DNA of 64,000 nt from assembly GCA_964360785.1 (NCBI GenBank), contig CAYHXX010000004.1, forward strand, positions 5,568-69,567. Reading direction: 5' to 3'. The DNA is from an uncultured Gammaproteobacteria bacterium (GTDB taxonomy: Bacteria; Patescibacteriota; Microgenomatia; Woykebacterales; RBG-16-39-9b). This document shows positions 5,199 through 57,769 of this stretch, piece after piece. The position numbers and the translations under genes are program-made. The notes below the pieces were generated by a model. That model was not told the DNA's origin, did not search any database, and worked only from the letters and a program-made list of their open reading frames with translations. Each line of letters opens with the position of its first letter. The stretch's first letter is position 1.

Positions 5199-5501
5199 AT
5201 GTCGGGCACGATTTGGGGGCTCTACGGTCTCGGATTCTTCACCGGAATCTTCGTGGTGGTCTTCAACAAGGACCAGCACGGGTGGCTCTGGAAGTTCAGC
5301 TGCATCTTTCTGGTCGGGTGGATCCCAGAGCGGATCTACACCTGGGGGCGGGCATTGTTCGGGCGGAAGCATACCATGTCGATCATGGGCTTCCTAACCC
5401 TTACCTTCCTGCTCATCTTCTTCTTCCCGGTCAGCATCCTGGTCTACTGGATGGCTAACCGGGGGAGGAGAACGGCAACGACGGGACCAGGCACGCCGTA
5501 G
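5199..5501 (+). CDS. small membrane protein (about 3 TM), GC-rich island
   Basis: SD ggaggag 2 nt before ATG; hydrophobic segments; high GC3. Confidence 0.45.
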   Translation: MSGTIWGLYGLGFFTGIFVVVFNKDQHGWLWKFSCIFLVGWIPERIYTWGRALFGRKHTMSIMGFLTLTFLLIFFFPVSILVYWMANRGRRTATTGPGTP

Positions 5502-8197: not shown

Positions 8198-8678
8198 CAC
8201 AACAATCAAGAAATTAATTCAAGAAAAGAAGATCAAGATAAATCCGTTTTCCAATGAATCTGTGGGGGCTGTTTCCATTGATCTTCATCTCGATGAAACC
8301 GCGCTCAATCCAGATACTCGTGTGGAAACAGATCTGAAAGATTTTCATCTCACACCAGATGAGTTTTATCTTGCCGCAACAGCGGAGTTTGTCGAACTTC
8401 CGAGCAATATTGTGGCCCGTGTTGTTCCAAGATCTTCGCTTGCCCGACTTGGAGTTTTGGCGACTTTTGATGCTGATATCTTGCCGCCAAATTATGCTGG
8501 AAAACCATTGTTGACTCTAAAAAATCTCTCGCGCAAACCAGTATTACTTAAACCCGGACTTGCGGTCGCGCAGATTATGTTTGAACAAGTTGATCAAGAG
8601 GTTGAAGGGTACAAAAGCCGTTACAACCATAAAAAGATCGAGGAAAGTAAACTTTGTGAGGAAATAGATGGCAAATAG
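8184..8678 (+). CDS. second Dcd/dUTPase-superfamily protein, short form, possibly a dUTPase
   Basis: MVLSNTTIKKLI..INP, RSSLARLGVLATFDADILPPNYAGKPLLTLKN; 14-nt overlap with the upstream dcd. Confidence 0.65.
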   Translation: MVLSNTTIKKLIQEKKIKINPFSNESVGAVSIDLHLDETALNPDTRVETDLKDFHLTPDEFYLAATAEFVELPSNIVARVVPRSSLARLGVLATFDADILPPNYAGKPLLTLKNLSRKPVLLKPGLAVAQIMFEQVDQEVEGYKSRYNHKKIEESKLCEEIDGK

Positions 8679-10239
8679 AACAGAAAAGTGGCCGCTTTTA
8701 TACGAAAACATTTTACGGGTTGGTGATCCAGACCAGTCGGTTGGGGTAGTTACACTCTGGACTGAGCGGGATGTGATTAAAGATTCACTCGAAAAGAAAG
8801 ATTACGCTGCCATTGGCAATCTGTATTCGCCAGCTGGCATAAACCACATGATGCGCAATGTTCTGGCCAACCCCAGCATTCGCCATCTAATAGTGTGGGG
8901 AGCGGATATGTCTGGTTCTGGTTCTTCTTTGCGTAATTTCTTTGAAAAAGGAATCGATAACGATTACAAGATTATTGATGCACCTGGTCAGATTGAGACT
9001 GAGATTCCCAAAGAAGCAGTCGAATCCTTCCGAACAAATGTTGAACTGATTGATATGAGAGGAAAACCAAAAGAAGAAGTTGTGAAAGCTGTCAAAAGTT
9101 TTAAAAAAGAAAAACCATTCCGAAAAGAAGCAGCTCTTTTCCCAGCCGCAGAGAAAAAAGTTGTCAGCTGGCCATCAGAGCAGATTAGTTTCCGGATTGA
9201 ATCGCCAAAAGTTGCTAGTCTTTGGTTGAAAGTTCTCAACATGGTGACCAAATACGGTCGGGTCAAATCTACCCGCTATGCCACGACCAATGAACTTAAA
9301 GAATTGCTCAATCTCAACTCTGTTCTTACAGACGAGGATCCAGACAATGAATATTTCCCCGAATATCTTCCCTTTACTACAAACGAACTGAAAGCTTATT
9401 ACCCAGAGTGGCTGACTGCTCGTCGTATTCCCGGAATGGCTTACAATTATGGTGACCGGATGCGCAATCTGGATGGAATCAATCAAATTGAAGAGATCAA
9501 AAAACTCTTACAGACTCGTCCAGATAGTAAAAAAATGATTGCATCTTTATATAATGTAAAAGTTGACTGGGCAGCAGCTAATACGGGTGACACACCTTGC
9601 ATCACCCAAGTGATTTGTGGTGTGCAAGATAAGAAACTCTTTATGACAGTCCATGTCCGCTCCCAGGATATGTTCCATGGTTGGCCGAGAAATATGTTTG
9701 CTGCCCGCAAAATGCAAAAAGAAATCGCCGACTCGGGTGGATATCCAATGGGGAAACTCGCGATGATTACTCACAGTGCCCATATGTACGCCGATGATTG
9801 GGCGACTGCACAGGAGCTTCTCGACAAGTACTATATAAAAGAAACAGCGCAGTATAAACCCGGTTTTCATTTCCAAGAAGACCCGAGGGGCAACTGGTTG
9901 GTAGACATTGATTGGGAAAACAAACTTATATTGGCCAAGTTGATGAGCCCAGATATGAGTACAGAGTTGACTATGTTTCATGGAAAAACGGCTAAAGAAG
10001 TGATAAAACAAATCGGTGAGTGGGAAATCCTGACTTTACCTTCACATGCACTTGATTTTGGAGCCGAGCTACAAAAAGCGGAGATTGCACTAAACTATGA
10101 TCTGCATGATTGGAAACAAGATCGAGCTATCAATTTCGAAAGACAGAAGGTGGAAAGCCCTGTGGTTGAAAAGTCAGAGCGAGTACTGCCGCCAACCCGC
10201 TATATCAAACGCGGGAAGAAATCTATCCCAATAAAATAG
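8668..10239 (+). CDS. fusion protein: N-terminal MtrA-like domain + thymidylate synthase (ThyA)-fold domain
   Basis: N-terminus KWPLLYENILRVGDPDQSVGVVTL..NPSIRHLIVWG..EIPKEAVESFRTNVELIDM resembles tetrahydromethanopterin S-methyltransferase subunit A; C-terminal half has ThyA motifs incl. nucleophile DTPCITQVI, VRSQDMFHGWPRNMFAARKM, ITHSAHMY; 11-nt overlap with upstream gene. Confidence 0.55.
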   Translation: MANRTEKWPLLYENILRVGDPDQSVGVVTLWTERDVIKDSLEKKDYAAIGNLYSPAGINHMMRNVLANPSIRHLIVWGADMSGSGSSLRNFFEKGIDNDYKIIDAPGQIETEIPKEAVESFRTNVELIDMRGKPKEEVVKAVKSFKKEKPFRKEAALFPAAEKKVVSWPSEQISFRIESPKVASLWLKVLNMVTKYGRVKSTRYATTNELKELLNLNSVLTDEDPDNEYFPEYLPFTTNELKAYYPEWLTARRIPGMAYNYGDRMRNLDGINQIEEIKKLLQTRPDSKKMIASLYNVKVDWAAANTGDTPCITQVICGVQDKKLFMTVHVRSQDMFHGWPRNMFAARKMQKEIADSGGYPMGKLAMITHSAHMYADDWATAQELLDKYYIKETAQYKPGFHFQEDPRGNWLVDIDWENKLILAKLMSPDMSTELTMFHGKTAKEVIKQIGEWEILTLPSHALDFGAELQKAEIALNYDLHDWKQDRAINFERQKVESPVVEKSERVLPPTRYIKRGKKSIPIK

Positions 10240-23819: not shown

Positions 23820-24686
23820 ATGTCGATAGACGAAACGGTCGTAAGGCCGCAAGTTGCCCTTTTCATCGATCTGGAAAACATCCGCTACAGTTTCTTGAGC
23901 CAGTTCAAATATGAACCGGATTTCAAGTCACTTTTCGGTGTTGCCCGGGCGGAAGGTCCTGTCTCGGTCGCCTACGCCTACGCCGATTTTTCACGTCACC
24001 CTGAGGCGGTGCGTCGGCAACTGGAAGCGTTGGGGATCACCTGCCGTGACACCCCAGTGCGGGTTCAGCAATCCAACGGCGAGACTCGGGTCAAAAGTAC
24101 TGTAGACCCGCAAATGATGCTCGACATCTTAGAGACGGCGCTTGACCGGCCGCAGGTTAAGACCTTCATCGTTGGGACCGGGGACTCGGACTTTTTGCGC
24201 ATCGTGACGATGTTGCAAAACCGATTCGAGAAACGGGTCTTGGTAATCGGGGTGCCGGGAACCCTGAGCCAGGATCTTGCGGCAGCGGCTACAGACGTCA
24301 TAAACCTGGAGCCGGTTGTCATTACGGGTGACAACCCGATCGTCGGGGCGATCGTTCATCTAATGAGGACGAAAACACCGCCGGTGGGGTTCTGGACACT
24401 CCCGCAACTTGCCAAGTGGGCGAACCAGACCCATAATGGGGTTCCGGGAACGGATAGCGAAAGGTCGGCTGCTATCTCGTTCATGGTCCAGAACGGTTTA
24501 ATCAGGCAGGAGGTCCTGCCGGCCGAAGGCGAGCTAACCGAACGACGGGCCAGCAGTATTGATGAGGAGAACGAGCTGGTCAAAGAGATTCTCGCAGGCA
24601 GCACACCAAAACAGACACCCGGTCAAAGTCTTCTCGAGGCGTTCAGGGAGGCCGACTTGTCTGGAGAAAGTAACGCCAACAACTGA
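23820..24686 (+). CDS. NYN-domain (LabA-like) protein with C-terminal LOTUS/OST-HTH-like domain, GC-rich
   Basis: VALFIDLENI, TFIVGTGDSDFLRIV, RVLVIGV typical NYN core; C-terminal WTLPQLAKWAN..GLIRQE helix-rich domain. Confidence 0.55.
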   Translation: MSIDETVVRPQVALFIDLENIRYSFLSQFKYEPDFKSLFGVARAEGPVSVAYAYADFSRHPEAVRRQLEALGITCRDTPVRVQQSNGETRVKSTVDPQMMLDILETALDRPQVKTFIVGTGDSDFLRIVTMLQNRFEKRVLVIGVPGTLSQDLAAAATDVINLEPVVITGDNPIVGAIVHLMRTKTPPVGFWTLPQLAKWANQTHNGVPGTDSERSAAISFMVQNGLIRQEVLPAEGELTERRASSIDEENELVKEILAGSTPKQTPGQSLLEAFREADLSGESNANN

Positions 24687-34130: not shown

Positions 34131-34189
34131 AATATGTTGCAATATGAGAGTAATTGACACCTAGCTGCTTGTTTGCTAGTATATTTTGC

Positions 34190-34264
34190 AATGGGTTCCA
34201 AGTTTAACATCGTTCTCGTTATTAGCCTCACCCTTATGGAGGGCGGCTCTGACGTTGACCGGTA
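34190..34264 (+). CDS. candidate 24-aa hydrophobic peptide MGSKFNIVLVISLTLMEGGSDVDR, near-leaderless
   Basis: promoter ttgaca(34153)-17/18-tagtat ends 8 nt before the ATG; terminator hairpin gacctcctaccacaggaggtttttt follows at 34294-34320. Confidence 0.2.
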
Positions 34265-34351
34265 AGTTACCTGGAACAACAACGAACGAGCTGACCTCCT
34301 ACCACAGGAGGTTTTTTCGTTTGTTGGAGCTCAAAGCCATCCGGAAGTGAG

Positions 34352-34855
34352 GTGGAAAGTTTCCACCGCCAGGCCAAGCAAGGAGGAATGGTAATGGCCG
34401 AAGGTAGTCTCAACGGGTTCAAGGGAGAGATCGTGCGGTTCCGGTTGCAAGATGTGCCAGAACCTGTGGTAGTCTGTTACGTCAAGAGGACTGGCCTTGC
34501 CGCGGTGTGGATCAAGGCGTTGGGACGTCACGACGCGGAGGTAGAGCTATCCGGCGCTGGCTTTACTGAGATCGAGGCCGCGACCAACGCTGTTCGGCAG
34601 CTGCTCGGTGAGGCTGACGGCAACCAGTTGAAAGTCTACCGAGCGGAGCCCAAGCGGGAGAAGCGCAGTGGCGTTAGCGTAGTTCAGTCGGCCATCTCCT
34701 ACGATGTCGGCGCCGAATACCGCGAGGAGTTCGGACAGGGGACTGGTGCCCACCGACTTGCCACCCAAGCTTATATCATGGCGCTCTTCACGGCGATCAA
34801 TAAGATCCACGTGAAGTTGGCGAACCGCGAGATGGTACCGGTAAGGACAGCATAG
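34352..34855 (+). CDS. hypothetical protein, GC-rich (likely start ATG 34394 after SD aaggagga)
   Basis: high GC3 ORF; no recognised motif. Confidence 0.4.
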   Translation: MESFHRQAKQGGMVMAEGSLNGFKGEIVRFRLQDVPEPVVVCYVKRTGLAAVWIKALGRHDAEVELSGAGFTEIEAATNAVRQLLGEADGNQLKVYRAEPKREKRSGVSVVQSAISYDVGAEYREEFGQGTGAHRLATQAYIMALFTAINKIHVKLANREMVPVRTA

Positions 34856-34916
34856 AAAGAAGAAAAAGAGATGGTCCTTCACGCCTCCGAACCGCATTGG
34901 ATCGGAGGCTTCTTTT

Positions 34917-36404
34917 TTGGTACAATTGAAGGTACTTAAAACAACCATGCCCAGGTACTCAAGCCTCAAGCCTAATTTTCAAAAAGGATTCACGTTTTTG
35001 CACAGCGAAAAGGCAGAACGAGTGCTAAAATTGTTTTTGCAAAAAGCAAAAACCAGCACTGGATTTACACTTTCGGAGGTTCTGATAGCTTCTGCGATTA
35101 TCGCGATTATCGGTGTGTCCATAATGAGCACCGTCGCCCTTTTTCTCAAGTTTTCGGCTGATGCACGCGGGCAAATCCAAGCCCAAAATCTCGCTCATCA
35201 GAAAATCGAATTTATCCGCAACATGCCTTATGACGACGTAGCCACAGTAGCAGGGGCGATCTACCCACCGGGAAACATTCCGGATAATGAAGACATCACG
35301 GTCGACAATCAAGTTTATAAAGTTCAGACACTGATAAACTACGTTGATGACCCCTTTGATGGGGATGTTGGGGGGACAATAGTTGGAAAACCAGTGGATA
35401 TTTATCCCTATGACTACAAAAAGATCAGTATAAAAATTCGGGATAAGAATAATTCCAAAATATTGGCTCAGACTACAACAACAATGTCGGCCAAGGCTGC
35501 TGAAACTGCAACCAATACGGGAATTTTATCCTTGCGAGTGCAGAATTCCCAGGGGAATCCTGTAGCAGGAGCAGTTGTTAATGTTACCAACCCGACTCCA
35601 GTTCCGCCGGTCAATATCAATACATTTACTGATGTTTCCGGACTAGTTTTGATACCGTCGCTTCCACCAAGTTCAAACAATGAGTATCATGTTACGGTGA
35701 GTTTAAGTGGTTACAACAGCGACTCTACCAACCCAGCTTTTGCTCCCAACAACCTTAGCCCAGTGAAGCCAGACTTCAATATTCTAGCGCAGCAAATAAC
35801 GCCACTAACGTTGGAAATAGATCTTGTGGGTAGCATGCAAATAACCGCAAGAGATACTGCTGGAGCAGTCATGACTGGTCTAAACCTGAGCGTGAAAGGG
35901 GATAAATTGACTTATGCTTCTCCAGATACATACAAGTTTAGTCAAACTGCCGCAACTGACGGCAGTGGTGTGGTAAATTTGAGCAATCTCGAGTGGGATA
36001 GCTATAGTATCGCTGTGCCCAGTGGTTACTACATTGTTTCAAGTTCGCCTTATCAGAAAGTTAGCGTCAGTGCGGGTCAGGGTATCAATGTAAGTTTAGT
36101 GGTTACAAACAATAGTAACTATCCGACTGTAGCCAGCACCATGCCAAGTGCGGGAGTGAATAACTCGACCTTAGATTTCAACATTACCGGTACAAATCTA
36201 GTTTCGGGAACAACCGTGCTCTTGCGTCTGGCTGGGCAGCCTGATATCAGTGCAACCGGAGTTATTAGTGCCAGTGGAGATACAGAATTAACGGGCACAT
36301 TTGATTTAACCGGAAAACAATCAGGGATTTGGGATTTGATAGTTACAGATCCGAGTAGCCGGGTTGTGACGCAAACTGGCGGTTTTAGCATCAGCGCACC
36401 CTAA
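34917..36404 (+). CDS. type IV pilin-like protein with long leader
   Basis: class III signal KTSTG|FTLSEVLIASAIIAIIG (E at +5) preceded by a leader containing QKGFTF decoy motif. Confidence 0.6.
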   Translation: MVQLKVLKTTMPRYSSLKPNFQKGFTFLHSEKAERVLKLFLQKAKTSTGFTLSEVLIASAIIAIIGVSIMSTVALFLKFSADARGQIQAQNLAHQKIEFIRNMPYDDVATVAGAIYPPGNIPDNEDITVDNQVYKVQTLINYVDDPFDGDVGGTIVGKPVDIYPYDYKKISIKIRDKNNSKILAQTTTTMSAKAAETATNTGILSLRVQNSQGNPVAGAVVNVTNPTPVPPVNINTFTDVSGLVLIPSLPPSSNNEYHVTVSLSGYNSDSTNPAFAPNNLSPVKPDFNILAQQITPLTLEIDLVGSMQITARDTAGAVMTGLNLSVKGDKLTYASPDTYKFSQTAATDGSGVVNLSNLEWDSYSIAVPSGYYIVSSSPYQKVSVSAGQGINVSLVVTNNSNYPTVASTMPSAGVNNSTLDFNITGTNLVSGTTVLLRLAGQPDISATGVISASGDTELTGTFDLTGKQSGIWDLIVTDPSSRVVTQTGGFSISAP

Positions 36405-36406
36405 AT

Positions 36407-37186
36407 ATGACAAGTGCTAAGGAATACATAAGAGAAAACAGTCCCGTACAAGAGCGAGGTTTTACGTTTTTACCTCGCAAAAAGGCAGAGCCTTTGTTAA
36501 AATCTTCAAACAAGGGATTTACGTTTTCACGAAGTGAAAAGGCAGAGCCTTTGTTAAAATCTTCAAACAAGGGATTTACGTTTTCACGAAGTGAAAAGGC
36601 AGAGCCTTTGTTAAAATCTTCAAACAAAGGCTTTACCTTGATTGAAATTTTGGTTGCAATGGCAGCCGGATCAATTATCTTAATCGTAGTTGCTCAGTTA
36701 TTTGTCAACGGTTTATTGTACAATCTAATCGGTTTTAATAGCTTTAACTCCCAGGCTGATGCGATTGCGGTACTCAATCGGGTTGCAAAAGAAATTCGTC
36801 AGGGTCCAGCTGTTGTAGTTGCTAATGATCAAAGTATAACGATACTCGAGTATCTAAATATCACTGATGACGCTCCCTACCAAGTCCGTTTCTATCTCAA
36901 TGGTGCCAATTTTATTCGCGGGCAGATTCCACCAACGGGTTCAGGTCCGAGCTACACCTACAACCCCGCTAGTGAAACTTTTAAGACGCTTGGTACAGCT
37001 ATACAAAATGGGGCAACCCCCATATTTACCTATTATGATCAGTATGGAAATCAATTGAGTAGTCCAATTATTACTGGAAACATTACTTTAGTTAAAGTGA
37101 CGTTAAATTTTGGGGAGACAAAACTGCGGACGGCTTTCACCGCCACGACTCAAGCACAACTGCGATTTAAAAAAACTAATTTATGA
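36407..37186 (+). CDS. type IV pilin/pseudopilin with about 70-aa repeat-containing leader
   Basis: NKG|FTLIEILVAMAAGSIILIV prepilin peptidase site; leader has 3 x KAEPLLKSSNKGFTFSRSE. Confidence 0.7.
   Translation: MTSAKEYIRENSPVQERGFTFLPRKKAEPLLKSSNKGFTFSRSEKAEPLLKSSNKGFTFSRSEKAEPLLKSSNKGFTLIEILVAMAAGSIILIVVAQLFVNGLLYNLIGFNSFNSQADAIAVLNRVAKEIRQGPAVVVANDQSITILEYLNITDDAPYQVRFYLNGANFIRGQIPPTGSGPSYTYNPASETFKTLGTAIQNGATPIFTYYDQYGNQLSSPIITGNITLVKVTLNFGETKLRTAFTATTQAQLRFKKTNL
36483..36640. repeat. 57-bp perfect tandem repeat (about 2.8 copies) inside the pilin leader coding region
   Basis: aggcagagcctttgttaaaatcttcaaacaagggatttacgttttcacgaagtgaaa x2 identical + partial; each unit holds hairpins aaaggc-agag-gccttt and ttttcac-gaa-gtgaaaa. 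Confidence 0.85.
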
Positions 37187-38838
37187 TACTGACTAGGTTG
37201 TTAAAAAATACAAAACAAAGAGGATTTACGGGTTCCCGCAGGATAAAGGCAAAACCGTTGTTTGAAAATTCTAACAAAGGTTTTATCTTACTTGGTGCGG
37301 TTCTAATCTTGGCTGTAGTCACTGTGATGATCGCGGTAATATTTTCCTTAGTACTACTTTCACTTACCAAATCAGATCGTAACAGCCGCCAGATATCAGT
37401 ATTAGATATTTCTGAAGCAGGTATTAATTACTATCTTTGGCATCTTTCGCACAACTCAACTGATTATTGTGATGATACTGCTTGTCCGCCTGGGATCGGG
37501 CCTTTCGGTCCCTATGAACACAGCTTCACCAATAGCAGCGGTGAGGTGATTGGTACTTACACCCTTTGGATTGCACCGCCTGGTATAGCTGAAGGTGGAA
37601 AAGTCACTCTTTGTCATACGCCGCCTGATCCTGACCAAACTATTACAGTTGCCATTTCGGCTGTTCAAGCTCATCTTGATCATGGTGACACAATTGGAGA
37701 ATGTGGAGGTGGGGTTACTCCTGGAAGCAATGTGGTTACAGTTGAGTCTCGAGGCGATATAACCGGCGGCAATGAAAACCGTACCATAGTGGCAGAGCTT
37801 GGTATTCCGTCCTTTGCCAATTACTCAATTGTTGCTGATGATACAGTCAACCATTTGCGAATTGGGGCAGGCACAGAAACTTTTGGTCCAATCCACAACA
37901 ACGGCGGAGTACGGTTTGATGGGATAGCGCATGCAATTGTGACTAGTTCAATGGCTAGCTATGATGATCCGGATCACGATGATGTTGACTCACCGGAACA
38001 TGCCTGGCACTCAGATATTATTCAGGAAAGTGGCGTCCATACTCATCAAGCCGATCCAAATAGTGTTTTTCTCGCTGGGCGGCAATTTCCTGTCCCGCCA
38101 GTCAGTTTTTCAGCGATATCAACTGACCTACAGAACCTAAGGACCCTGGGACAAGTTGCTGGACAGGGTGTTTATTACGGCAGTTCGGGAAGTCTCGGCT
38201 ACCATATCGTACTTAAAACCAACGATACGTTTGCCATTTATCGTGTGACGGGAGTGGGCAACAACTGTAGTGGTGTACCAAGAGAAAACATTACCAACGA
38301 GGTGCTCATTACCAATAGGAATTTTCCTAGTAACGGTGTTATTTTTATCGAGGACAAACTTTGGCTTGATGGGAAAATAAATAGTGCTCAGCTTACCATT
38401 GCTGCGGCGAGGATCGGAGCTACGCCCGCCCAGGAAAAATCGGTGATTATCAACAATGATCTGGAGTATACGAATTACGATGGTTCCGACAAACTTGGTG
38501 TGGTAGCGCAGAAAAATGTAACAGTTGGTTATAATAGCGAGGGGGATTTTAGTGGTAGCTCTGATAACCAAGAGCTAAGGATTGATGCAGCCATGATTGC
38601 GCAGAATGGTCGAATTGGTCGAAATTACTATGGAGCTGGTTGTGGTGGAAACTACGTTCGCAACAACATAACAGTTTATGGCTCTCTTGCTACCCATTTT
38701 CGCTACGGTTTTGCGTATACAGATGGTACAGGCTATCAAAACCGAAATTTACTGTACGACCCTTATCTGACATTGGTACCACCGCCATTTTTTCCGACAA
38801 CTGGAAGTTATTCAATCCTTTCCTGGAAAGAGAAGTAG
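37183..38838 (+). CDS. large pilin-like/minor pilin or tip-associated protein (551 aa)
   Basis: leader KAKPLFENSNKG|FILLGAVLILAVV homologous to the neighbouring pilin leaders (no E+5); ATGA overlap with upstream pilin. Confidence 0.45.
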   Translation: MILTRLLKNTKQRGFTGSRRIKAKPLFENSNKGFILLGAVLILAVVTVMIAVIFSLVLLSLTKSDRNSRQISVLDISEAGINYYLWHLSHNSTDYCDDTACPPGIGPFGPYEHSFTNSSGEVIGTYTLWIAPPGIAEGGKVTLCHTPPDPDQTITVAISAVQAHLDHGDTIGECGGGVTPGSNVVTVESRGDITGGNENRTIVAELGIPSFANYSIVADDTVNHLRIGAGTETFGPIHNNGGVRFDGIAHAIVTSSMASYDDPDHDDVDSPEHAWHSDIIQESGVHTHQADPNSVFLAGRQFPVPPVSFSAISTDLQNLRTLGQVAGQGVYYGSSGSLGYHIVLKTNDTFAIYRVTGVGNNCSGVPRENITNEVLITNRNFPSNGVIFIEDKLWLDGKINSAQLTIAAARIGATPAQEKSVIINNDLEYTNYDGSDKLGVVAQKNVTVGYNSEGDFSGSSDNQELRIDAAMIAQNGRIGRNYYGAGCGGNYVRNNITVYGSLATHFRYGFAYTDGTGYQNRNLLYDPYLTLVPPPFFPTTGSYSILSWKEK

Positions 38839-38898: not shown

Positions 38899-39444
38899 AT
38901 GCTAGTCTTGAAAAAAGCTAAAGATATAAACTTATTGCCCGAATCCGAAGCAGCCCAAGGTGTTACAAAAGCAGCACCGATATTACTCTTGTTTTTAGTG
39001 GTTCTTGTAGGTGTCGTTGTTGTATCACTGATAGTTACTTTTTTGAAATTTTCCACAGCAAGCGAAGGGCGGTCCTTGCAAGAAGACCTTGCAGTCAAGA
39101 ACCAAGAGTGGCAAAAAGTCGCTTCGAGTGCGGCGGGTTTGAGTCAAATTAAGAATAAGCTGACGTCCTACCAAAGTTTTAAGACCCAATACCCTTCGCT
39201 CAATCCATATATCGAGAAACTAAAAAGCCAGTTACCAAGTTCGGCCAGTCTCATGAGTCTGAGTATTGATAACAAAGGTAAAGCCAACTTTCAAGTAGAG
39301 ATGTCCAAGCCAGAGGACGGCTATCAACTAGTGGAAATTCTCAACAAAAACACAAATTTCTCTGGTGTGAGACTTGTGACTCTCAGTAAAAGCGGGCAGG
39401 ATGGGAAATATCTTATTAATATCGATCTGACAATCAGCAAATGA
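38899..39444 (+). CDS. pilN: PilN-like pilus assembly protein
   Basis: N-terminal INLLP motif, single TM, periplasmic domain. Confidence 0.55.
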   Translation: MLVLKKAKDINLLPESEAAQGVTKAAPILLLFLVVLVGVVVVSLIVTFLKFSTASEGRSLQEDLAVKNQEWQKVASSAAGLSQIKNKLTSYQSFKTQYPSLNPYIEKLKSQLPSSASLMSLSIDNKGKANFQVEMSKPEDGYQLVEILNKNTNFSGVRLVTLSKSGQDGKYLINIDLTISK

Positions 39445-40211
39445 AAGAACTGCTTTCTTTAATAAAAAAACCAATTTTCGCTATACTTTTTGGATTTTTA
39501 TTTACGGCCCTGCTTTGTAGCCTTATGGTTTTTGGGCTTATTATGCCTGGTTTTAGTAGCTGGCAAGAAGGAACAAAAGCAAATAAAGATTTAGAAACAA
39601 AGGTGAGTAAGGTTTCACAGAACATAACCTTGGCAAAAGGGGTCAATGATTCTGAAAGAAAAAGCTACACTGAAGTTATGGATATTTTCTATCCTGTTGC
39701 AGCTGATTATTTACATTTTGCCACCTTGAACGAAAACTTAGCTGCGCAGATGGGTGTTAGTGTGACAAGTTTCACAAATGCCCAAACAAGTTCGAGTGCG
39801 GCCGCGGCCAAGGCGCCTTCAATCGGTCCGGCTGCTGGGAGTAGTTCTTCTTCAAGTTCGTCTGCAGCTAGTGTTGCGCCAGCAGCTACGCTGAGTTCAA
39901 TCTACGTGTCGGTTGCGTATAAAGGACAATTTGAATCCGTTGAGAGTTTTATTAGAAATTTAACAAAGCTAGATCGTTTGATTGGCCTCAGTACAATGGT
40001 GTTTACCAAAGTGGAAAATACAAATGAAATCACCGCCAATGCAACCTTCACACTTCCGCTTTCAGCAAAAAGTACCGCCGCAAGTACTAGTGAAGACATC
40101 CAGTTACTCTCCTTGGAGGACAAAAAGATACTAGAGGAAATCAAGTCGAAGATAGAGTTCTTTGCAAACCCGGCAGACACTCCAATCGGAAAAACCGATC
40201 CGTTCAACTAA
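39441..40211 (+). CDS. PilO-like pilus assembly protein with S/A low-complexity linker
   Basis: N-terminal TM, coiled-coil, position after pilN with ATGA overlap. Confidence 0.4.
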   Translation: MKELLSLIKKPIFAILFGFLFTALLCSLMVFGLIMPGFSSWQEGTKANKDLETKVSKVSQNITLAKGVNDSERKSYTEVMDIFYPVAADYLHFATLNENLAAQMGVSVTSFTNAQTSSSAAAAKAPSIGPAAGSSSSSSSSAASVAPAATLSSIYVSVAYKGQFESVESFIRNLTKLDRLIGLSTMVFTKVENTNEITANATFTLPLSAKSTAASTSEDIQLLSLEDKKILEEIKSKIEFFANPADTPIGKTDPFN

Positions 40212-47448: not shown

Positions 47449-47598
47449 GGCCGCTCCTTACCGAATGCCTGGTTTAGCTTATCAACATTATACTTCGGTT
47501 ATACAAATTTTGAGAAATAAGTCGGGGAAAAAGAGAAGAGCCCCCGCCGTAATGAGGGAGGGGCTCTTGGTTGTGCCGTCACGTCGAGGAGCATTGGG

Positions 47599-48108
47599 TT
47601 AGCTTGCGGCCGCGTCGTTGCTCGTGGCGTCCGCCTGTTCCTCGCTGATCGGCAGGATGTCAGGCGAGTTCTTGTCCTCCTGAATCTCCTTCATCCTGTC
47701 CTTGCAGATTCCTGCCACCGCGCTCCAGATCCACCTGGAGATCACCTCGTCGAGGTGCGATAAGAGGCCGGAAACCGCGGCAGCGAGCTCATCCTGCACG
47801 AAGCCGCCGGCGAAGCGGGCGTCTCCGCCTTCGAGGATCCACGGCGCCTCATTGACGATATAGCTGGACGATTGGCCCGTGCGATGACATAGTTCGGCCT
47901 TCGCGCGGGCGATCTCGTCGTACTTGTGCGCCCAGCTCTCCTTGGGGTCCACGGCGATAGTGGTCTCGTAGAGATGAAACGACGGTTCGATCACCACGAT
48001 GTGGAGGTTCCTCCTGCCGCCGCCGAGCTCCGCGAGGAGCGCGTCGATCGAAGGGCGAACCAAGGCGACGGCCTGGTCGAAGACTTCCTGGGTAACCAGA
48101 AACGACAT
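47599..48108 (-). CDS. hypothetical protein, GC-rich (possibly GlcG/DUF336-like)
   Basis: high GC3; terminator hairpin gagcccctccctcattacggcgggggctc on minus at about 47527-47570. Confidence 0.35.
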   Translation of the reverse strand: MSFLVTQEVFDQAVALVRPSIDALLAELGGGRRNLHIVVIEPSFHLYETTIAVDPKESWAHKYDEIARAKAELCHRTGQSSSYIVNEAPWILEGGDARFAGGFVQDELAAAVSGLLSHLDEVISRWIWSAVAGICKDRMKEIQEDKNSPDILPISEEQADATSNDAAAS

Positions 48109-56788: not shown

Positions 56789-56875
56789 AAAAAGAGCCGA
56801 CTGCTTCGAATGTGGAAGCAGCCGGTTTTGCGTTGGCATCGTGCGAACTCGTGTCAGCAGCCGTGACGTAGGGTA

Positions 56876-57280
56876 TTACGAGTGGATGGGACGCATTTGC
56901 CGATGGTAAGCCAGACGTCGTTTCACTTCATTAAGTTTCTCTTCCTCCCGTTGACGGCGTTTCGCATCACGCACGAGGCGCGCGATTCGAGAGCGCAGGA
57001 CTGATGGACGCTTCTTCGCTGGCGTTCCCCGCATCTTCAAGCGCAGCCGGCGCAGTTGGTTGACGTCGATGCCACCGTTGCTCGTGATGCAGAGGTTAAC
57101 TTGCCGTCGGGTGTTGCGGTGGCTCTTGTGTGAACCGTCCGACGGTTGGAGGATTCGGTGCAGGTACCCTGTCACCGTTTCACGTCCTTCCTCGAGAAGC
57201 AGGTGACCCGCTCTTTCGAGAGCGATGGCTCGGGGAACACAATTTCCCGCATCCTCCCACGCAGGGATATTTAGTTCCAT
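56876..57280 (-). CDS. hypothetical basic protein, GC-rich
   Basis: R/K-rich C-terminus; high GC3. Confidence 0.3.
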   Translation of the reverse strand: MELNIPAWEDAGNCVPRAIALERAGHLLLEEGRETVTGYLHRILQPSDGSHKSHRNTRRQVNLCITSNGGIDVNQLRRLRLKMRGTPAKKRPSVLRSRIARLVRDAKRRQREEEKLNEVKRRLAYHRQMRPIHS

Positions 57281-57445
57281 GGTGGACTCTCCCTTCGGTA
57301 ATGACCTGATTGCTCGCTTACTTCTGGCCTATAATATAAAACTAATTGAGCTAAATTGCAAATCCAGTTTGTAGGTGGAGAAAAATTGGGCCGAGTGCAG
57401 GGTGTGCAATCGGCCCGTGACGGACTATTCGGTTGGTTTGGCGTA

Positions 57446-57769
57446 TCAGGCTGCGGTGTTTCGCCTCTGGCGTTCGGAGCGTTCTGAGTTGTCGATCATT
57501 GCCCAGAGACCGTTGCTGAAAGCGTCGGCTTGTTCGCTCCTTGGTGCCTTGGCGACCTTCGCCAGAAACTTGCGCAAGTTGTGTGGTCTGATGCAGAGCC
57601 CTTCGGCGGTGCCGTCGAAAAGTTGCTTGTAGGTCAGCCCAAGCACCGGCCGTCGCCGAGGGTTGGCGTAATCGTACAGGTGTCGAAGCATGTGATGCTT
57701 GACACGAGTGTCGAGCTGCGCTGGCGCTTTGGACGCTGCGGCCGCAATCTTACTCCGATCTATCTTCAT
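57446..57769 (-). CDS. hypothetical protein, GC-rich
   Basis: SD aaggag before ATG on minus strand. Confidence 0.35.
   Translation of the reverse strand: MKIDRSKIAAAASKAPAQLDTRVKHHMLRHLYDYANPRRRPVLGLTYKQLFDGTAEGLCIRPHNLRKFLAKVAKAPRSEQADAFSNGLWAMIDNSERSERQRRNTAA

Follow-up and report, generated by a model that had tools for sequence, protein, structure and literature searches.

Prepilin leaders are usually treated as short, featureless tags, and those that have been described comprise 6–26 amino acids (aa) (PMC4471445). In Geobacter sulfurreducens, one PilA gene gives precursors with 10- and 29-aa leaders, both of which are cut by PilD (PMC6201914). The Rickettsia palindromic elements (RPEs) are short hairpin-forming DNA sequences that lie in frame in protein genes and are translated as a tolerated extra peptide (PMC10969869). 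Here, we analyzed a 64-kb stretch of DNA (contig CAYHXX010000004.1; the whole stretch is referred to as the window), whose genes have their relatives in Candidatus Woykebacteria and allied Microgenomates of the candidate phyla radiation (CPR). It contains an operon with three pilin-like genes (designated g1, g2, and g3), in which the leaders harbor short in-frame palindromic cassettes whose base pairing has been maintained while the encoded peptide has drifted.

The locus resembles type IV pilin systems in that the pilin-like genes share an operon with PilN- and PilO-like genes, and g1 and g2 have the G|FTLxE core and the hydrophobic stretch of approximately 21 residues of class III signal peptides and pass the TIGR02532 model. 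However, the leaders here are 39, 75, and 33 aa long and contain repeated modules, which places them outside the described range of 6–26 aa (PMC4471445), and g3 lacks Glu5 and passes no pilin model. The cassettes have in common with RPEs a palindromic hairpin, an in-frame stop-free insertion, and direct repeats that resemble target-site duplications. RPEs are approximately 100–150 bp long and occur in dozens of copies in unrelated genes and also between genes, whereas the 36–78-nt cassettes were, in the window and related loci, confined to the G-F-T codons of pilin leaders. As for Geobacter PilA, a short isoform may exist beside the long one, because the 57-nt units offer in-frame AAGG-N8-TTG starts; however, neither repeats nor conserved hairpins have been described for PilA, and dual initiation in our case is a possibility. 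Structure-gated translational coupling and hairpins that mask the Shine–Dalgarno (SD) sequence are exemplified by fourU-type thermometers and phage MS2 coupling. The cassettes are similar in that the U-rich arm of their first hairpin (HP1) pairs with an A-run adjoining an SD-like AAGG, and a second helix (P2) buries the in-frame TTG and the next codons, which ribosomes from upstream would open; however, the element is located 50–220 nt inside an open reading frame (ORF) and not in a 5′ untranslated region (UTR), it has no Rfam match, and its regulatory role is putative.

Cassettes in the leaders of three pilin-like genes

The three genes are encoded on the forward strand, at positions 34947–36404 (g1), 36407–37186 (g2), and 37183–38838 (g3, a PilX-like large subunit). 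In each product, Gly −1 and Phe +1 precede approximately 20 hydrophobic residues (g1, G39|FTLSEVLIASAIIAIIG; g2, G75|FTLIEILVAMAAGSIILIVV; g3, G33|FILLGAVLILAVVTVMIAVI). The cleavage site reads G|FTLSE at residues 39/40 of g1, which also has CarboxypepD_reg/Ig-like domains, G|FTLIE at residues 75/76 of g2, and G|FILLG in g3, where position +5 is a Gly. TIGR02532 was passed by g1 (17.7 bits against a cut-off of 16.3, residues 39–57) and by g2 (25.8 bits, residues 74–95), and g2 also passed PF07963 (29.9 bits; cut-off, 21.2). The g3 protein matched neither of these pilin N-terminal models, and its homologues are named “Tfp pilus assembly protein PilX” by the Joint Genome Institute (JGI). The comparison with solved structures gave no informative match for g2 or g3. 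Counted through the Gly from the conserved ATG codons, the leaders are 39, 75, and 33 aa long, and those of cassette-less orthologues are 11–24 aa long; the original prediction for this locus had the third length right and had placed the first two at about 38 and 72 aa.

The start of g1 is most likely ATG 34947 and not TTG 34917, from which the frame had originally been opened, as the TTG sits within the T-run of a terminator-like hairpin (CCTCCGA...TCGGAGG) and the ATG start (MP...) is kept in relatives. The hairpin and T-run, together with the −10-like box TACAAT (34921–34926) that follows them, occupy positions 34884–34926 of the forward strand, and we infer that this box may act as a promoter; the block TTTTTTGGTACA(A/C)TT upstream of g1 is kept in L003, L018, and L025 (related loci are designated by L numbers). 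The g2 ATG is located 2 nt after the g1 stop codon (TAAatATG), and the g3 ATG overlaps the g2 stop codon (ATGA). The pilin genes of cassette-less orthologues start at an SD-less ATG abutting or overlapping the preceding stop codon, and the ATG abutting the upstream stop is kept with or without a cassette. In L001, the ATG of g2 that abuts the g1 stop is the start chosen by the gene caller, with one in-frame GTG further upstream, inside g1; the ATG and first 18 codons of the window g2 are homologous in L001.

As originally proposed, all three long leaders are built from a shared unit, which we delimited as an in-frame cassette of 57 or 75 nt. There is one 75-nt cassette in g1, three 57-nt cassettes in g2 (a copy number that rests on one low-coverage assembly), and one 57-nt cassette in g3. 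A cassette spans the interval from one pseudo-site, GGNTTTAC(G), to the following GGNTTTAC, and is bounded by 8- to 11-nt direct repeats of the G-F-T codons. The g1 cassette (34986–35063) extends from the Gly codon of its pseudo-site (GGA, 34986) to the true Gly codon (35061–35063). In g2, cassettes a (36458–36514; 79.7 bits) and b (36515–36571) are followed by cassette c (36572–36634), which ends at the true site (Gly codon, 36629–36631), and the g3 cassette (37222–37284; 74.1 bits) includes its Gly codon at 37279–37281. The g2 array had been described as a perfect 57-bp repeat at 36483–36640; the period and the three units hold, but the strictly perfect periodic run covers only 36480–36627. 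Tandem Repeats Finder reported a period of 57 with 2.8 copies, 98% matches, and a score of 300 at 36480–36636, the last copy differing at two bases and the first in the hairpin. Because units a, b, and c are distinguishable, an array with at least two unit types is real.

In DNA motif searches and with a covariance model (R1), the unit appeared nowhere in the 64 kb but in these three leaders, and R1 detected no copy outside pilin leaders in the window and 27 related loci; the cassette motif is not a chance feature. Rfam 15 gave no match in the window at the gathering threshold, and permissive settings over the repeat gave only microRNA matches at chance level (E = 1.8). Promoter and terminator scans inside the cassettes were likewise at chance level, and a TAAAAT box is not conserved. 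A 16-mer scan of viral contigs produced 61 matches, none of which carried the full motif according to the covariance model, so these are regarded as chance matches.

Conserved base pairing and the cassette peptide

Cassettes of 57 and 75 nt fold into two or three helices instead of a single terminal inverted repeat. HP1, located directly after the pseudo-site, has a 7-bp stem and a 3-nt loop, and its stems vary with compensation (TTTTCAC/GTGAAAA, TTTTTCC/GGAAAAA, TTTTTGC/GCGAAAA, and TTTCCGC/GCGGGAA). The hairpin TTTTCAC-GAA-GTGAAAA, which had been correctly recognized in the original prediction, is this helix, and it is conserved with covariation. P2 consists of 12 bp between AGAGCCTTTGTT and AACAAAGGCTTT, which corresponds to codons N-K-G-F of the next or true site, and its compensated pairs include G-C/A-U/C-G, U-A/A-U/G-C, U-A/G-C/C-G, and U-A/C-G. 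HP2 (8 bp) occurs inside P2 in the 75-nt form only, and three of its pairs are compensated between the window g1 and L015 g3. The unpaired AAGGCA between the helices is the most conserved block of the unit, invariant in eight of eight sequences.

In g1, the minimum free energy (MFE) structure reproduces HP1 (34995–35001/35005–35011), P2 (35015–35026/35055–35066), and HP2 (35033–35040/35046–35053). In g2, HP1 is diverged in cassette a (36467–36483) and lies at 36524–36540 in b and 36581–36587/36591–36597 in c, with P2 at 36487–36498/36509–36520, 36544–36555/36566–36577, and 36601–36612/36623–36634, respectively; the P2 of cassette c covers the N-K-G-F codons, and its conserved AAGGCA-type linker is located around 36595–36601. 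In g3, a degenerate HP1 (37231–37247) precedes P2 (37251–37262/37273–37284).

In the unit alignment, 85% of the cells were paired, compared with 42–58% when the partners were slid, and 11 of the 27 pairs had changed on both sides, compared with 1–5 in the slid controls; none of 500 shuffles reached the observed values. Without a supplied structure, RNAalifold returned HP1 and P2, with 7 of 19 pairs compensated, and MFE folds of single sequences gave the same helices, with z-scores of −5.1 (g2 cassette c), −4.5 (L015 g3), and −5.6 (whole g2 leader). The cleavage-site codons had a pairing probability of 0.70–0.98 in cassette-bearing genes and of 0.35–0.68, with z near 0, in 17 cassette-less pilin genes. 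These results show that base pairing is maintained while the cassette peptide drifts; of the functions originally suggested for the repeats, a structure at the RNA level in the 5′ coding region is thus supported by covariation and by RNAalifold. A second hairpin, originally given as aaaggc-agag-gccttt, does exist, as AAAGGC-AGA-GCCTTT (loop of 3 nt), but differs from the conserved pairing: it occurs only in g2-type units, where it competes with P2, and is not conserved in g1, g3, or L015. Folding of g2 cassette c and of L002 g2 also gave an outer helix that joins the pseudo-site to the T-L codons following the true site; inspection by eye showed that it is not conserved in g1, g3, or L015, and it was not retained.

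All cassette lengths (57, 75, 48, 36, 69, and 78 nt, relatives included) are multiples of three, and the cassettes are stop-free. Divergence between units at codon positions 1, 2, and 3 was 0.24, 0.31, and 0.46. From the lengths, the absence of stop codons, this gradient, and the conserved upstream ATG, we concluded that the cassettes are in all likelihood translated as part of the leader. The third-position excess was 1.7-fold in the cassette unit; for the mature domain of these genes it was 5-fold. The unit peptide was identical at only 9 of 19 residues (47%) between the window g2 and L002 g2, whose whole proteins are 76% identical. The cassette peptide therefore appears to be weakly constrained and to evolve almost freely, which argues against the functional propeptide that had originally been offered as one interpretation. 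A search of 5.8 billion proteins with the 77-aa leader alone returned no match at E ≤ 10.

Distribution and candidate explanations of the cassettes

The number of cassettes in orthologous g2 genes of close relatives is zero, one, or three, in agreement with the copy-number variation that had been anticipated. The g2 genes of L001 (87% identical to the window g2) and L015/L016 (82%) have none; g1 is not in the contig in either case, and neither is g3 of L001, whereas the g3 of L015/L016 has one 75-nt cassette like that of the window g1. In L002 (76%), where g1 is not in the contig, g2 and g3 each have one cassette, and the contig ends inside that of g3; the two share the same HP1 stem, indicating that cassettes were copied between genes of one operon. 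L003 (80%) has none in g1 and g3 and a 36-nt derivative in g2, which is explained by a deletion between two TTTTTGC repeats, and L004 (65%) has a 48-nt variant in g1 and none in g2 and g3. No cassette was present in L005–L007, L010, L017, or L025–L027. In L018, g1 has nothing more than a short KGFNL motif located 10 codons upstream of the true site, which was not counted as a cassette. Among 701 homologues of the g2 family, collected with a profile spanning the whole of protein P0002, almost all lacked the unit region, and upstream GFT motifs recur in the long leaders of the distant homologues P0059, P0080, and P0166.

One of these distant homologues, P0059 (locus L028), is only 30% identical to g2, and its 70-aa leader begins with MRSAKSY (MTSAKEY in the window). 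Two in-frame cassettes, one of 69 nt and one of 78 nt, lie in this leader; their bounding repeats are GGATTTACCCC/GGGTTTACCCC and GGGGTTTAC/GGGGTTTAC, with a consensus of GGRTTTAC. These cassettes form long hairpins (arms of 14 nt in one cassette and of 12 plus 9 nt in the other; fold z = −5.7), with the 3′ arm of each ending in the Gly codon that follows. Their stems show no sequence relationship to the window stems and escape detection by R1. Clear inverted termini (approximately 20 nt) were found only in the second of the L028 cassettes. Thus, the arrangement in which direct repeats of G-F-T codons enclose an in-frame hairpin reaching the true Gly codon recurs. Either it was retained over a long time while its sequence turned over, or mutation or insertion has struck this quasi-palindromic site repeatedly.

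A distant g3 homologue, P0034 (L019:395–430), has a long leader whose coding DNA holds a tandem 7-nt repeat (ACTTCAG, approximately four copies) just before its G|Y site and thus represents a different kind of pilin leader with repeats. The 3′ end of g1 (36375–36404) reads ...GGF(S/T)(I/V)xxP*, as it does in L003, L006, L007, and L016, and its codons hold the same 8-mer (GGNTTTAC/G) as the g2 prepilin site 50–100 nt downstream; this is a third direct repeat, which might feed slippage or recombination at the g1–g2 junction.

We tentatively regard each cassette as a translated passenger in a leader that is cleaved off, selected as an RNA or DNA hairpin and probably modulating the expression of its cistron by copy number. 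Translation would begin at the conserved SD-less ATG abutting the preceding gene or, for g1, at the ATG after the −10-like box. Ribosomes would read through the cassettes, and the extra peptide would be discarded when the prepilin peptidase cuts the sole G|F that precedes a hydrophobic helix. In the mRNA, HP1 would be followed by the invariant unpaired AAGGCA and then by P2, in which the cassette would pair with the true cleavage site at codons −3 to +1; this structure may lock the first codons of the mature pilin until ribosomes from the upstream start open it, and may set the output of that minor-pilin cistron. This could come about through translation that is slowed or gated, through an internal AAGG-N8-TTG start that is itself gated and gives a normal 8-aa leader, or through protection from decay. 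The copy number would then be a tuning knob, that is, a copy-number-variable brake or gate. Cassettes would be gained, lost, copied between the pilin genes of the operon, and tandem-expanded by recombination or slippage at the flanking GGNTTTAC repeats, which would account for the pattern of zero, one, and three copies. A broader proposal, which we consider speculative and unlikely in this full form, is that an undescribed class of small in-frame palindromic cassettes homes to prepilin G-F-T codons in CPR bacteria, with the flanking duplications constituting the pseudo-sites and with hairpin “rheostats” or structure-gated internal starts setting minor-pilin stoichiometry.

Several observations weigh against a selected hairpin that tunes expression. 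The function is deduced from anatomy, the covariation is backed by approximately six independent sequences, and the structure was derived from those same sequences. Gene conversion within a genome is evident from the shared HP1 stem of L002 g2 and g3, and it can mimic compensatory change, as can template-switch mutation of quasi-palindromes. The strand on which the structure acts is weakly marked (10 G-U versus 4 A-C cells, with similar folding energies on both strands), and HP1 is degenerate in the window g3. The hairpins are located approximately 50 nt or more downstream of the ATG and therefore cannot occlude that start. Finally, most close relatives, including the closest orthologue, have no cassette, and such patchiness would suit a tuning device no better than a dispensable or selfish element.

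The main rival, which we hold to be somewhat doubtful, is a selfish or neutral in-frame palindromic cassette without benefit to the host. A hairpin would have been inserted or duplicated at the quasi-palindromic G-F-T codons, duplicating them like a target site; it would spread by gene conversion, survive only because the leader is cut off, and drive its own copying and slippage. The patchiness among close relatives and across the genes of the operon is explained by it equally well, and the perfect recent tandem copies in g2, the flanking direct repeats, the L028 cassette with its inverted termini between GTTTAC repeats, the near-neutral evolution of the peptide, and the precedent of the in-frame RPEs (PMC10969869) all agree with it. 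However, the confinement of the cassettes to pilin leaders throughout the window and 27 related loci is unlike the behavior of miniature inverted-repeat transposable elements or RPEs, and no transposase was found in the neighborhood. The block between the helices is invariant although it is unpaired, P2 always involves the codons of the true cleavage site, and orthologous copies differ by compensatory changes. The lack of copies elsewhere in these loci and the invariant linker are the main points against this rival. We regard as quite improbable that the sole true start lies inside or after the cassettes, which had been named at the outset as the circumstance that would overturn the long-leader interpretation. 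An SD-like AAAGG placed 8 nt ahead of an in-frame TTG (or, in g1, a GTG) would then give a leader of 8–14 aa (MLKSSNKG|FTLIE), and the upstream part would be intercistronic sequence or 5′ UTR, open by chance. AAGG-N8-TTG/GTG is indeed present in all five 57-nt units and in the window g1, AAGGCA is invariant, the gene caller picked such a TTG in L003 g2 (P0004), and two prepilin isoforms have a precedent in Geobacter PilA (PMC6201914). Against this, frame and openness are kept in every cassette variant, codon-position periodicity is present, and the ATG abutting the upstream stop is kept in all orthologues. The TTG position is occupied by CTG in L015 g3, L004 g1 lacks any alternative start in frame, and the L028 cassettes have in-frame TTG/GTG codons only 3–4 codons before the Gly and no AAGG upstream of them; moreover, the first base of the internal start codon covaries with its P2 partner (T-A, G-C, C-G) and is therefore explained by pairing. 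For these reasons an internal start is not general, although an additional start of this kind, AAGG lying 8 nt before the TTG or GTG, is a possibility.

A function at the peptide level, with the KGFTF motifs as decoy or regulatory sites for the prepilin peptidase (PilD) or the long leader as a propeptide with its own role, seems very improbable; both ideas had been put forward in the original prediction. G-F-T is kept in seven of nine pseudo-sites, K-A-(E/K)-P-L-L is fairly conserved, and GFT motifs recur in the long leaders of the three distant homologues mentioned above. However, Gly −1, which is essential for the peptidase, is a V in L002 g3 and has been lost from L003 g2, the L002 g2 motif is G-L-R-F, and no hydrophobic segment follows the pseudo-sites, which would therefore not face the membrane. 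The peptide stretch that is conserved, K-A-E-P-L-L, is encoded where the conserved RNA linker and P2 arm lie. The unit peptide is absent from the closest orthologue, and the leader-only protein search was empty. Least credible of all is an array or copy number made by the assembler: the contig coverage is only approximately 5.8×, the perfect 148-nt periodic stretch is close to the read length, and an independent Logan assembly of the g2 site breaks inside the repeat core, but units a, b, and c differ at defined positions, the a–b and c–true-site junctions are real sequence, and single cassettes are present in g1 and g3 as well as in independent assemblies of different samples (L002, L015/L016, L021).

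In these genomes, the leader appears to be a safe landing pad for structured nucleic-acid modules whose number varies between close strains. If the hairpins control expression, they would represent a new and simple tuning of minor-pilin dosage in streamlined episymbiotic bacteria that depend on type IV pili, and would add a candidate cis-regulatory RNA motif that is new and lies within coding sequence. If they are selfish, they would join the Rickettsia elements as one of the rare bacterial examples of palindromic DNA colonizing reading frames, and the site preference would explain itself. The known distribution is narrow and the hosts are uncultivated; on the practical side, gene callers mis-start these pilin genes and assemblers break at the array.

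Genomic surroundings of the pilin operon

The window sequence is identical to a 79.7-kb contig of the Hainich groundwater metagenome (ERZ1292618; well H52, 0.1-µm fraction). The gene order is cysS, the three pilin-like ORFs, and then a PilN-like gene (38899–39444) and a PilO-like gene (39441–40211), both on the forward strand and with weak matches to the respective Pfam families; the order of pilin-like genes followed by PilN/PilO is also found in L003, L015, and L017. No PilD was found among the window ORFs that were scanned. Only approximately 10 of 45 gene starts in the window have a clear AAGGAG-type SD, and many genes have a TATAAT-like box 5–10 nt before the ATG, which suggests that leaderless or very short-leader mRNAs are widespread in this window.

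A conserved non-coding element is located just downstream of cysS (34154–34370). It has a strong promoter-like site (TTGACA-17-TAGTAT with TG), followed by approximately 130 nt that close with a terminator-like hairpin (34293–34313) and T-run, and then a GGTGGAAAGTTTCCACC hairpin. The element is 77% identical, with long invariant runs, to L003:3457–3700, where the terminator stem is shorter yet still paired, and no Rfam family matched it; it may represent a small RNA or a leader element. The adjoining 167-aa ORF (34352–34855) reaches 63% GC (genome average, approximately 44%) and is spanned by a GC-rich island (34200–34880) with conserved flanks. No Pfam or NCBIfam family matched this ORF, and the syntenic slot of L003 contains an unrelated, different GC-rich ORF; the slot looks like a variable cassette site adjoining the pilin operon. 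Other short GC-rich islands (57–63% GC) occur at 47500–48100, 56800–57600, and 23900–24300 and at 5200, 6100, and 41800. The reverse-strand ORFs at 47599–48108 and 56876–57280 have no detectable similarity to the ORF at 34352, and the former has no Pfam match.

Elsewhere in the window, an unusual 523-aa fusion ORF (8668–10239) combines MtrA-like, thymidylate-synthase-like, and PterinBD-DUF4346 domains. Among the related loci, L004 (DATBWR010000013.1) belongs to a metagenome-assembled genome labelled “Candidatus Nanoarchaeia archaeon” and yet contains the bacterial pilin operon described above. The same sequence is found on a 166-kb JGI contig (L009), and the genome probably comes from a CPR bacterium that was misassigned to the archaea.

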